DNA of 11,186 nt from the UHGV virus genome UHGV-0120180; one strand, 5' to 3'. This DNA comes from a virus. Numbering within the stretch: position 1 is the stretch's first letter; each line of letters begins with the position of its first letter. Below are positions 3,001-6,000 of the stretch, piece by piece. The position numbers were made by a program.

Positions 3001-6000
3001 GCGGTCTCTGGTGGAAAAGTTGTTATTCCCAAAGCGATGATTTATGACGCGGTGATTGAAACACTGGTGTCGCGGAAGGTTGTGGCAGATGAAGTAAAAG
3101 CCGGGGTAAGTATCACGTCGCCTGTTATCCGGAGTGCTGTTATTCAGAACGGGAACTTTCAGGTTGATTCTCAGGGTAACCTGAATATTGGTGGCCTTTT
3201 TAGTGTTACGTCGCAGGGGCAACTGACAATTCGTTACTCTAATCAGAATGTTGGGCTGGTGATCCGCAATGATAAAATTGAAGTTTATGACCAGAACGGA
3301 CGCCTGGCTGTTCGCATAGGCAGGTTAAGCTGAGCCGGAGGCTGACATTGGCAGAATATGGTTTTGCAATATACAACAGAAACAATGTTAATGTTACGGG
3401 CGTGCTTACTCCCATATTTTTCCTGGACAGGTTTACGGCGGAGTCGGGATCAAAAACGTATACGAATAAACCAGAAGGGAAAACATTGCAGGCAGTCTGT
3501 TCATTATTTCCGTGGAATAATGTATTTAAGGACCGGAAAGTACCGAAGATAACCATTAATGGCAATACGGTGACGTGGTCGAATCTTGAGCAGGGGATGG
3601 GGTCATATATTTATACATTCTGGGGGTGAGTTGTATGTATGGTTTAAGCATTACGAAACCAGATGGCAGCTTGTGGATAAGCCCGGGGTTTACGCCTCAG
3701 TGTCTGATCAATAAGGGAACTATTCCGGCGACTGAGAAGGCTTTTTTTAAAACATCAATCCCGTCAGGAAAAAGTTGTTTTTTCTTTATCAGAACAGAGA
3801 AAAAGGCCGATGTCATGTACACACATGAACAGATTGATGGATATCATGCCTTAAGGCTTCATCAAATTGTCAGGGGAACGAATCCTGGTGTTACGACTGT
3901 TTATGCTTTTGCGAATATGGTTACTCAACCTTCTGAGTATGGTATTGCCATGTATAACCCGTCGGGTGAGATGATTTACCATGGCGAAATGATGCTGCTT
4001 GACGCGAAGTTAATACCTGTTGATATCAAATTTGAAAAAGACCTCGGATATCCATGTGCAATTATGCCTGCACTGGTTGGGTATTATAACTGGCAGCGTA
4101 CACCTTATGACCGACCGATTTACACCACATCAACGGGGGCTACAGGAAATAAAATATATTCCTGTGAGCATTATTCCGGTCGTGCAACATGGGATATTCG
4201 GAAGCCGTATATAGATAAAGTGCTGGTCATTAATTCATCAATATATGACTGATATGCCTGTCAGTATGAATATTAAGTAATAAAACTAAATTCATCTTAG
4301 ATAATACGGGGTTATTTTATTATAGGAAAAGTCTAAAAATGAAACATGCCAGAATTATTTTTGCGTGCACAACTTTTGTGATGAGTTTTGTAGCAGCCCC
4401 TGCCTGTGCAGCACAAGGTGACAGTACAGTTTCTTTCGGATACGCTCATCTTCAGCTCTCTGGACTGAACAATTTTGTTAAGGATTTAAGTCTTTATAAT
4501 CTTGATACTTTTAACCGTTTTACAAACAGACACTACTTCAATTCAGGCGAATATGCAGATGCTTCTGTCCGGGGGCATGATGGCAAAGGCAAATCTCCTC
4601 AGGGGATGAACATCAGGTATCGTTATGAGATAACGGATGAGATTGGTGTTATAACATCTTTTACATGGGCGCGTTCTATGACTAATGCGCAGGCATTTAT
4701 TGATGTTAACCCAGGAGATGAATCCAGAGAGGTTAAAAATCCGGCAGCTTCAGGAAGAACAGATATCAGAGCGAATTACTGGAGCCTGTTAGCGGGTCCT
4801 TCGTGGCGGTTTAACGAATACCTCAGTGTGTATGCAATGGCTGGTATGGGGGTTGCAAAAGTCACCACTGACTTGAAAATTAACGACAATCTTAATCATG
4901 GTGCCGGTAGTTTTTCTGAAAGCAAGAGTACTAAAAAAACAGCACTTGCATGGGCTGCTGGTGCACAATTTAACCTGAATGAAAGTGTTGCTATGGATGT
5001 CGCGTATGAAAGCTCCGGATCCGGTGACTGGCGCACGAGTGGGGTTATTGTAGGCATTGGCCTGAAATTCTGAGTAATACCCGACAATATGTCATAACCC
5101 GCTGTGATAGCGGGTTTTTTGTTGCCCGTGCAGGGCAAAAATCGTAGATTATGCGCGGGTGCCTTTCGGCTGATGGCTGGAAGGTGAACCTGAAGGCCTG
5201 ATGTGGAAAGGCCCCGAGTCAACTTTAATGTTAACCCGAGGCCCTAACCATCATACCTTAAGCAAGTAGAAGGTTAGCGCCTCTCCACTCAGGAGGCAAG
5301 CGCTATGTCGCAAAAATCGCTCATCACCGTCACAATTTGTATGACGGTAATCTTCACCATCTGGATGTTACACGGCTCGTTGTGTGAGTTCCGGCTGAAT
5401 TTGTGGGGAGCGGAGTTTGCGGCGTTCTTACAGTGTAAGCAGTAGGAAAACCGCGACGGGGACAAAAGTCCCCGTCAACTGGTTGCTGAGGTTCAGCCGA
5501 TATGGCACCCGTTTCAGGTGAGAGAGAGGTGGTTTTAAGTCAGCCAGTGATGCGCGTAAGTACATTGATTCACATCGTGATGAGCTTGTTCGTCATGTGA
5601 AGGAGATGCGGGAGATTTCGCGTGAGGAGCAGCGTAACGCCACTAACCGCGACCGCACCGGACCAGAACGCCGCAAAGGGGATGTTTCGCCGGAGCAGTT
5701 CAGTGATGCGTTTGGTTTCCGTGGTGTGCAGTTTGGTAATTATGTGGAAGGTCCGCGTCGTCAGGCTGATTTGAACCGGGCTTATGACTCGCTGCATGAC
5801 CTGGCTGACGTGCTGAACGTTCCGACAAAAGCGCTTTCCCTGAATGGTCGTCTTGGGCTTGCTTTTGGTGCCCGTGGTAAGGGTAAGGCGGCGGCACACT
5901 ATGAGCCGGGTGAGGTGGCAATCAACCTGACAAAAGGTAACGGACCGGGGGCGCTGGCCCACGAATGGTTCCATTCACTGGATAATTATTTTGGTCGTTA

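Follow-up and report, generated by a model that had tools for sequence, protein, structure and literature searches.

A second hok-type toxin-antitoxin locus of Stx phages with a predicted 5'/3' fold-back helix in its mRNA

The DNA analyzed here is a stretch of 11,186 nucleotides (nt) from the virus genome UHGV-0120180, referred to below as the window. Positions 5157 to 5511 of its plus strand very probably encode the mRNA of a type I toxin-antitoxin locus of the hok/sok kind, in which two complementary blocks at the mRNA ends correspond to the tac (5') and fbi (3') elements. The reference system is hok/sok (parB) of plasmid R1, for which the Gerdes laboratory described tac/fbi fold-back inhibition of the hok mRNA (summarized in PMC9841398 and PMC3851714). 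The class is also marked by 3' maturation into a shortened, translatable mRNA, by RNase III cleavage of the sense-antisense duplex, and by killing once the antisense RNA is lost. The two blocks of the window were found to pair, in statistical excess; the pairing was conserved and covaried among relatives, and alternative pairings of the same segments were obtained in silico. The locus is an uncharacterized second hok locus of Shiga toxin (Stx) phages, from a subfamily that lacks mok, and the mechanism proposed for it is the textbook one.

Complementary ends of a predicted hok mRNA

The open reading frame (ORF) at 5305 to 5445 encodes a small hydrophobic protein of 46 amino acids (aa) that matched the Hok/Gef toxin family (Pfam PF01848, HOK_GEF) with 33.2 bits (cutoff, 22) and an E value of 4e-8, and its homologues carry Hok/Gef family annotation. 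The leader at 5157 to 5316 matched the Rfam family RF01794 over the full model length (E value, 9.5e-8; 40.7 bits; E-value mode), with model position 1 aligned to the G that opens the 5' arm (5157). RF01794 is named "sok" after the antitoxin, yet it matches the hok-sense strand, from the mRNA +1 to the hok AUG. Model position 1 was taken as the 5' end of the predicted mRNA, and its 3' end was set by the end of the 3' arm together with the positions (5510, 5514, and 5525) at which homology stops in three unrelated downstream contexts. The resulting length of about 355 nt agrees with that of relatives (334 to 387 nt). The features concerned are as follows.

5157 to 5511, plus strand: predicted full-length hok-family mRNA, about 355 nt, both ends predicted
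5305 to 5445, plus strand: hok-family toxin ORF, 46 aa, Pfam HOK_GEF
5291 to 5296, plus strand: hok Shine-Dalgarno (SD) sequence AGGAGG, 8 nt 5' of the AUG, read from the sequence
5157 to 5173, plus strand: 5' arm, tac equivalent; outer strand GGGUGCC at 5157 to 5163, inner strand UCGGCUGA at 5166 to 5173
5483 to 5511, plus strand: 3' fold-back segment, fbi equivalent; inner helix at 5493 to 5500, outer helix at 5504 to 5510 plus 5511, and 5483 to 5492 predicted to pair with 5255 to 5265

A first-pass annotation of the window had reported exact complementarity of CGGGTGCC (5156 to 5163) with GGCACCCG (5504 to 5511) and of CGGCTGA (5167 to 5173) with TCAGCCG (5493 to 5499) and had likened it to fold-back inhibition in hok mRNAs. 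All four strings were found at these positions, each 3' string being the reverse complement of its 5' partner, and the likeness to hok was supported by the Hok ORF, the hok leader, the retention of the pairing in homologues, and an R1-type control. The pairing was also larger than first described, with U5166-A5500 bringing the inner helix to 8 base pairs (bp). C5156 is able to pair too, but it probably lies upstream of +1.

The 5' 18-mer (5157 to 5174) was scored against all 30-nt tiles on either strand of the window. Its own complement aside, the best partner was the 3' site at -30.9 kcal/mol; the runner-up reached -23.0, and the background had a mean of -11.3 and a standard deviation of 3.4 over 22,314 tiles. 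The same value of -30.9 kcal/mol was reached by 1 of 2,000 dinucleotide-preserving shuffles of the 3' untranslated region (UTR). RNA folding, which the first-pass annotation had proposed as a check, paired both ends in the 362-nt full-length fold, with a z-score of -8.1. Across eight choices of transcript ends, the mean pair probability was 1.0 for the outer helix, 0.98 for the inner helix, and 0.92 for a third helix, and the values stayed the same when the ends were shifted upstream of 5157 (by as much as 57 nt) or downstream of 5511 (by as much as 89 nt). Because the window-wide scan, the 3' UTR shuffles, the fold z-score, and the pair probabilities all make chance unlikely, the complementarity is far beyond what chance would give. 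A tac/fbi pairing was thus found in sequence, in thermodynamics, and, as described below, in comparison, for transcript ends that are themselves predicted.

The third long-range helix (5255 to 5265 with 5483 to 5492) was predicted by folding of the whole molecule. In homologues, 85% of its alignment cells pair and one pair covaries, and the shuffle control does not set it apart. It is possible that this helix is real.

Conservation and covariation of the arms

A blastn search with a 461-nt query returned 198 phage records at an identity of at least 69%, 195 of which covered at least 80% of the query, together with 34 plasmid records, while a protein search returned 56 clusters, mostly of 46-aa Hok, in E. 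coli and Salmonella. Eighty-seven loci were retrieved from IMG/VR and from Salmonella, E. albertii, and Citrobacter genomes, and 49 distinct homologous sequences were aligned (alignment A2). In the distant copies (approximately 75 to 83% identity; P88-like, Salmonella, and plasmid), homology was found to span 5137 to 5510, starting just 5' of the -10 box and halting directly after GGCACCC. Near-identical or related hok loci also appeared on contigs labeled Xanthomonas pisi (an 857-nt contig), Planococcaceae (a metagenome-assembled genome), and Vagococcus sp. (L004, L005, and L007), which probably represent enterobacterial contamination or misbinning.

From the 49 sequences, RNAalifold predicted both long-range helices independently. 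Pairing, whose conservation the first-pass annotation had suggested checking, was kept in 93.0% of the arm cells, compared with 27 to 48% when the 3' partner was slid by 1 to 3 columns. Variation in the inner helix consisted mainly of G-C to G-U and U-A to U-G changes, which keep the pairing only in plus-strand RNA. This helix also shows a few two-sided changes: CGACC/GGUCG in Citrobacter and CGAU/AUCG in S. diarizonae, against CGGCU/AGCCG in the window.

The comparison also covered other hok subfamilies (R1 hok, hokB, hokW, hokE, a hokA-like locus, and two metagenomic types), for which +1 was taken from the Rfam model and the 3' arm was placed by RNAduplex. The arms compared included the following.

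Window: 5' GGGUGCC, 3' GGCACCC
Two metagenomic types: 5' GGGUGCU, 3' AGCACCC
R1-type loci: 5' GGCGCUU, 3' AAGCGCC
hokB: 5' GGGUGCCUGAGA, 3' UCUCAUGGCACCC
hokW: 5' GGGUGCUUGAGG, 3' CCUCAA(C)GCACCC

In a fixed-register alignment of 14 arm classes, 86.5% of cells paired, compared with at most 54% after sliding. Compensatory changes, also named in the first-pass annotation as evidence to look for, were detected across the subfamilies as two-sided changes at 4 of 9 pairs (13 cells), a level reached in 0 of 500 shuffles; they included U-A to C-G at position 4 and C-G to U-A at position 7. The 3' arm sites all lay at the homologous place, 334 to 387 nt from +1. Minimum free energy (MFE) folds of the whole molecules paired nt 1 to 7 with the last 7 nt in R1-type hok, P88 hok, hokB, hokW, a Citrobacter locus, and a metagenomic locus, and in the R1-type control this pairing, nt 1 to 7 with 392 to 398, was the published tac/fbi pairing. 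On an R1-type leader begun one base upstream of +1, RNAduplex chose the 3' stem-loop over the known fbi.

Several copies could not be used or were left out. An R1-type plasmid copy (L094) was unusable, its leader being interrupted by IS150; L096 gave no Rfam match; and the pndA-like L105, without an RF01794 match, was left out. In K-12, insertion sequence (IS) elements lie next to or inside hokC and hokA. An intact Hok ORF behind a damaged leader was observed in L062/L063, L027, and L010: in L027 the first approximately 75 nt of the leader have been swapped for unrelated DNA, and in L010 (S. enterica subsp. diarizonae) the leader is approximately 15 nt short.

Alternative pairings of the leader and 3' trimming in silico

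Besides the 3' arm, the 5' arm was predicted to have two partners inside the leader, and these form part of a set of elements that exchange partners between the full-length and trimmed folds.

5175 to 5191, plus strand: predicted to pair with the 5' arm in a metastable hairpin of the nascent RNA, from MFE folds of 5157 to 5200 and 5157 to 5310
5203 to 5218, plus strand: ucb equivalent, including GGCCCC at 5213 to 5218; its partner changes from GAGGC (full-length form) to the 5' arm (3'-trimmed form)
5237 to 5241, plus strand: GAGGC, homologue of the mok Shine-Dalgarno box, with no mok start codon after it
5255 to 5265, plus strand: target of the predicted antisense RNA 5' tail (sokT-like); pairs with 5483 to 5492 in the full-length form and forms a hairpin loop after trimming
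5279 to 5286, plus strand: dcb/anti-SD box GCCUCUCC; its partner changes from the hok SD (full-length form) to GAGGC (trimmed form)
5455 to 5476, plus strand: 3' stem-loop of 9 bp with an AAAA loop, from the fold and RNAalifold

In the full-length fold, the GGCCCC element (5213 to 5216) paired with GAGGC (5237 to 5240), and the anti-SD (5282 to 5286) paired with the hok SD (5292 to 5296). In an RNA ending at 5483, the 5' arm paired with 5203 to 5215 and GAGGC paired with the dcb box (5280 to 5283). Stepwise trimming of the 3' end in silico, from 5511 to approximately 5483, gave the following values.

tac/fbi pairing: 0.99 at 5511, 0 at ~5483
GAGGC/dcb pairing: 0 at 5511, 0.6 at ~5483
Anti-SD/SD pairing: 0.98 at 5511, 0.63 at ~5483
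Accessibility of 5254 to 5265: 0.18 at 5511, 0.62 at ~5483

Among the 49 homologues, the metastable hairpin pairing was kept in 94.0% of cells (at most 61% when slid) and the tac/ucb pairing in 98.6%. The alternative tac partners and the relay of ucb, SD box, and dcb were predicted in the nascent and trimmed folds, and the conserved pairings show little covariation; as both alternative partners are conserved, the 5' arm hardly varies. In the 3' stem-loop, two loop-proximal pairs covary (AU in 28 and GC in 21 sequences; AU in 21, CG in 20, and GC in 6). This stem-loop likely protects the 3' end of the processed mRNA by arresting exonucleases. Read on the minus strand, 5454 to 5477 is a stem-loop followed by the T-rich run CGGTTTTCCT, which the scan flagged as terminator-like, and the element may also stop leftward transcription.

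By analogy with R1, from which the transcript ends, the 3' processing, the effect on translation, and the antisense RNA are all extrapolated, the mRNA would pass through the following states. In the nascent RNA, the 5' end would be held in the local hairpin with 5175 to 5191. Once the 3' end has been transcribed, 5483 to 5511 would fold back onto 5157 to 5173, and probably onto 5255 to 5265 too, locking the leader closed with GGCCCC (ucb) on GAGGC and the anti-SD (5282 to 5286) on the hok SD; the full-length mRNA would then be neither translated nor bound by antisense RNA. Slow exonucleolytic trimming back to the stem-loop at 5455 to 5476 would strip the fbi segment, whereupon the freed 5' end would re-pair with ucb, GAGGC would shift to the dcb box, the antisense target loop would open, and the hok ribosome-binding site would become less occluded. 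A short-lived Sok-like antisense RNA (approximately 5264 to 5200, minus strand) would decide between destruction of the mRNA and synthesis of the toxin.

Putative promoters and predicted antisense RNA

The first-pass annotation had placed the 5' arm exactly where a candidate promoter would start transcription. This agreed with a conserved -10 box, TAGATT, 6 nt 5' of 5157; the promoter as a whole was less convincing, with 8 of 12 consensus matches, and was missed by a consensus scan. In all contexts of the subfamily, the -10 box was conserved as TA[GAC]A[TAG]T, 6 to 7 nt 5' of GGGTG.

5122 to 5150, plus strand: putative hok promoter; -35 TTGCCC at 5122 to 5127, 17-nt spacer, -10 TAGATT at 5145 to 5150
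5200 to 5264, minus strand: predicted Sok-like antisense RNA, about 60 to 65 nt, both ends predicted
5271 to 5299, minus strand: putative sok promoter; -35 TTGCCT (reverse complement of 5294 to 5299), 17-nt spacer, -10 TAACCT (reverse complement of 5271 to 5276)

The predicted antisense RNA folded into a 16-bp hairpin with 12 single-stranded nt as a tail at its 5' end (-32.5 kcal/mol; z-score, -6.5), and this tail is complementary to 5254 to 5265, the segment opened by trimming. The annotated sokB and sokC occupy the same place along their hok mRNAs (nt ~43 to 102). The TTG and TAACCT of the putative sok promoter were invariant or nearly so in the 49 homologues, and its hexamers are weak.

Absence of a mok frame

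In the window and in the copies from Sakai, P88, Salmonella, and Citrobacter, the GAGGC box is followed by no ATG, GTG, or TTG, so that none of these has a mok frame there. The whole 46-aa Hok subfamily lacks a canonical mok start after the CGAGGC box (window positions 5237 to 5305; also L001, L003, L006, and L009), whereas mok starts 7 to 8 nt past it in seven loci, namely, R1, hokB, hokC, and four more. An AUG at 5201 (+45), inside the ucb region, is mostly conserved and opens ORFs of 8 to 79 codons, which read into hok in only 5 of 49 sequences. The translational coupling of hok to mok, a defining step in R1, is therefore probably absent here.

The 46-aa subfamily is made up of the Stx-phage locus, P88-like phages, several plasmids, and chromosomes of Salmonella, E. 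albertii, and Citrobacter. It is possible, though less likely than not, that its members represent a mok-less hok/sok variant in which the fold-back would control the toxin ribosome-binding site directly through a relay of helices, and in which the antisense RNA would block this relay and trigger cleavage rather than act on translation of a leader ORF. The relay might then, equally tentatively, run in the order fbi, tac, ucb, GAGGC, dcb/anti-SD, hok SD. A recent survey of Hok diversity explicitly left out Mok and the mRNA elements (bioRxiv 10.1101/2025.08.07.668861), and a literature search returned no report of mok-less hok loci.

Weighing of the fold-back interpretation

Several observations weigh against reading 5157 to 5511 as a hok/sok-type mRNA closed by fold-back. 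At the curated gathering thresholds, Rfam gave no match anywhere in the window, the leader falling short of the score of 59 at which RF01794 is gathered. Scores of 35 to 54 bits were obtained for further members of the 46-aa subfamily, compared with 87 to 118 for canonical loci (110 to 118 for hokB/hokC), and standard Rfam annotation consequently misses the subfamily. With the canonical mok frame missing, R1-style coupling of hok and mok cannot apply, and the consensus scan of the window for promoters and terminators called neither the hok nor the sok promoter. Trimming opened the hok SD only modestly, its probability of being unpaired rising from 0.18 to 0.22. The outer helix is essentially invariant within the 46-aa subfamily and so shows no covariation of its own, and the choice of family-wide 3' arms by RNAduplex favors pairing. 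Imperfect arms also occur, with one mismatch in the L012 type (GGAUGCC) and with GGACACC in L062/L063, where the leader is mutated throughout. Finally, the published work on Sp5 (PMC8621323) concerns a different locus, hokW.

Among the alternatives, the one that survives best, though it is improbable, is that the long-range helix serves mainly as a terminator or 3'-end stabilizer, a GC-rich stem followed by UUU(C), rather than as an inhibitor of translation and antisense binding. In the window the 3' arm is followed by GUUUC; the corresponding bases are UUUAU in R1-type loci, CUUUU in hokB, and UUUG in Citrobacter, and the consensus scan found no separate hairpin terminator past the arm in the window. 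The U-tract is not conserved, however, with UAUCUC after the arm in P88-like copies and AAAUUAAC in one type; a stem that closes a 330-nt loop is no canonical intrinsic terminator, and the closed and open conformations of the leader depend on the helix in silico. The two roles are, moreover, not mutually exclusive.

It is still less probable that the arms act at the DNA level, as terminal inverted repeats or as recombination or insertion scars bounding a mobile hok cassette. The conserved block of 5137 to 5510, shared with P88-like phages, plasmids, and Salmonella chromosomes, does end exactly at the 3' arm, and it occurs in at least three unrelated downstream contexts. Its upstream edge, however, lies 20 nt 5' of the 5' arm, with the -10 box inside the block, so that only one of its ends coincides with an arm. 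The G-U and U-G changes of the inner helix pair only in plus-strand RNA and would become C-A mismatches in DNA or on the opposite strand, the leader contains two more conserved partners of the 5' segment, and arms of unrelated sequence covary in distant hok loci.

That the complementarity arose by chance, or that the 3' arm is conserved solely through its overlap with a downstream start codon (ATG 5502 in ATGGCACCCG, the annotated orf66 start in VT2-Sakai and Lyz12581Vzw), can be set aside almost entirely: the shuffle and window-wide tests speak against chance, other hok subfamilies have matching arm pairs of different sequence, and this explanation is contradicted by the comparative sequence data, GGCACCC being retained by copies (P88-like, Salmonella, E. 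albertii, and Citrobacter) in which orf66 is absent and the downstream sequence is entirely different.

Genomic setting

The surroundings of the locus correspond to the late region of a 933W/Sp5-type Stx phage, with the gene order tail-fiber genes, the Lom/Ail outer membrane protein gene (4339 to 5073), the hok locus, and the gene of a large polyvalent (LPD) protein. The lom gene has its own terminator at 5096 to 5116. In the window, the hok locus sits between lom and a truncated polyvalent-protein gene; in VT2-Sakai it sits between lom and orf66, where it is unannotated (NC_000902) and is the sole other hok besides hokW. Stx phages of the 933W/Sp5 type thus have two hok loci, and the published hokW-sokW is the other one; a literature search found nothing specific on the second. 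Some phage records carry the RefSeq name "MokW-like host killing" for the 46-aa protein.

In the reference Stx phages, the ATG at 5502 within the 3' arm is the start of orf66, so that the end of the hok mRNA would overlap the start of the next gene. Relative to VT2-Sakai, the window has a deletion junction at 5524-5525, 13 nt 3' of the 3' arm, which joins NC_000902 position 44921 to 51518 and removes orf66 to orf70 together with the 5'-most 3.45 kb or so of the LPD polyvalent-protein gene (8.4 kb). What is left is a 32-codon orf66 stub (5502 to 5600) and a 1,631-aa ORF that starts at GTG 5597 (5597 to 10492). The junction was matched in none of 50,697 phage records and none of 5,426 complete E. 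coli genomes.

Comparison with known hok loci

The predicted mRNA shares with R1 a Hok/Gef toxin ORF within some 350 to 400 nt of RNA whose extreme 5' end pairs with its extreme 3' end, a single 5' element with a cotranscriptional hairpin partner and a ucb partner, and the same order of ucb, GAGG(C) box, dcb box, and hok SD. Both also have a GC-rich 3' stem-loop upstream of the fbi element and an antisense RNA, here predicted, with a single-stranded 5' tail and a hairpin opposite the leader. The two differ in the sequence of the arms (GGGUGCC/GGCACCC here, GGCGCUU/AAGCGCC in R1) and in the toxin, of 46 rather than 52 aa, with only approximately 34% identity over 32 residues. The window locus, unlike R1, has no mok frame after the GAGGC box; it lies in the late region of a Stx phage rather than on a plasmid.

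The locus was at first assumed to be hokW-sokW, on the basis of best matches in Stx phages and the "MokW-like" labels. This identity was ruled out by the primers of PMC8621323, which encode MKQQKAM...DYESEK, that is, the 51-aa HokC-like HokW, and by the annotation of VT2-Sakai, in which hokW is orf74, "gef homolog" (NC_000902, 57501 to 57713; L104). The hokW-sokW locus of Sakai prophage 5 belongs to the same phage type and toxin-antitoxin family, and the two ends of its mRNA likewise match (GGGUGCUUGAGG and CCUCAA(C)GCACCC). In contrast to the window locus, it encodes a 51-aa HokC/Gef-like toxin and has a mokW frame, and it lies approximately 13 kb downstream in VT2-Sakai, just past the end of the window. 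The tac/fbi elements are not discussed in PMC8621323.

The hokB/sokB and hokC/sokC loci of K-12 have a homologous leader with the same GGGUGC 5' end, and the 3' arm of hokB, too, is GGCACCC, although its inner helix differs (UGAGA/UCUCA). Unlike the window locus, hokB and hokC keep mokB and mokC, which start 7 to 8 nt past CGAGGC. Several K-12 hok loci are disrupted by IS elements.

The mechanistic import of the locus is small, in that it reproduces the textbook folding pathway of hok mRNA, and the practical value is modest: 933W/Sp5-type phages hold a second hok-type toxin locus beside the studied hokW-sokW. The mok-less subfamily would provide a convenient natural test of the leader ORF against RNA refolding alone in the control of hok.

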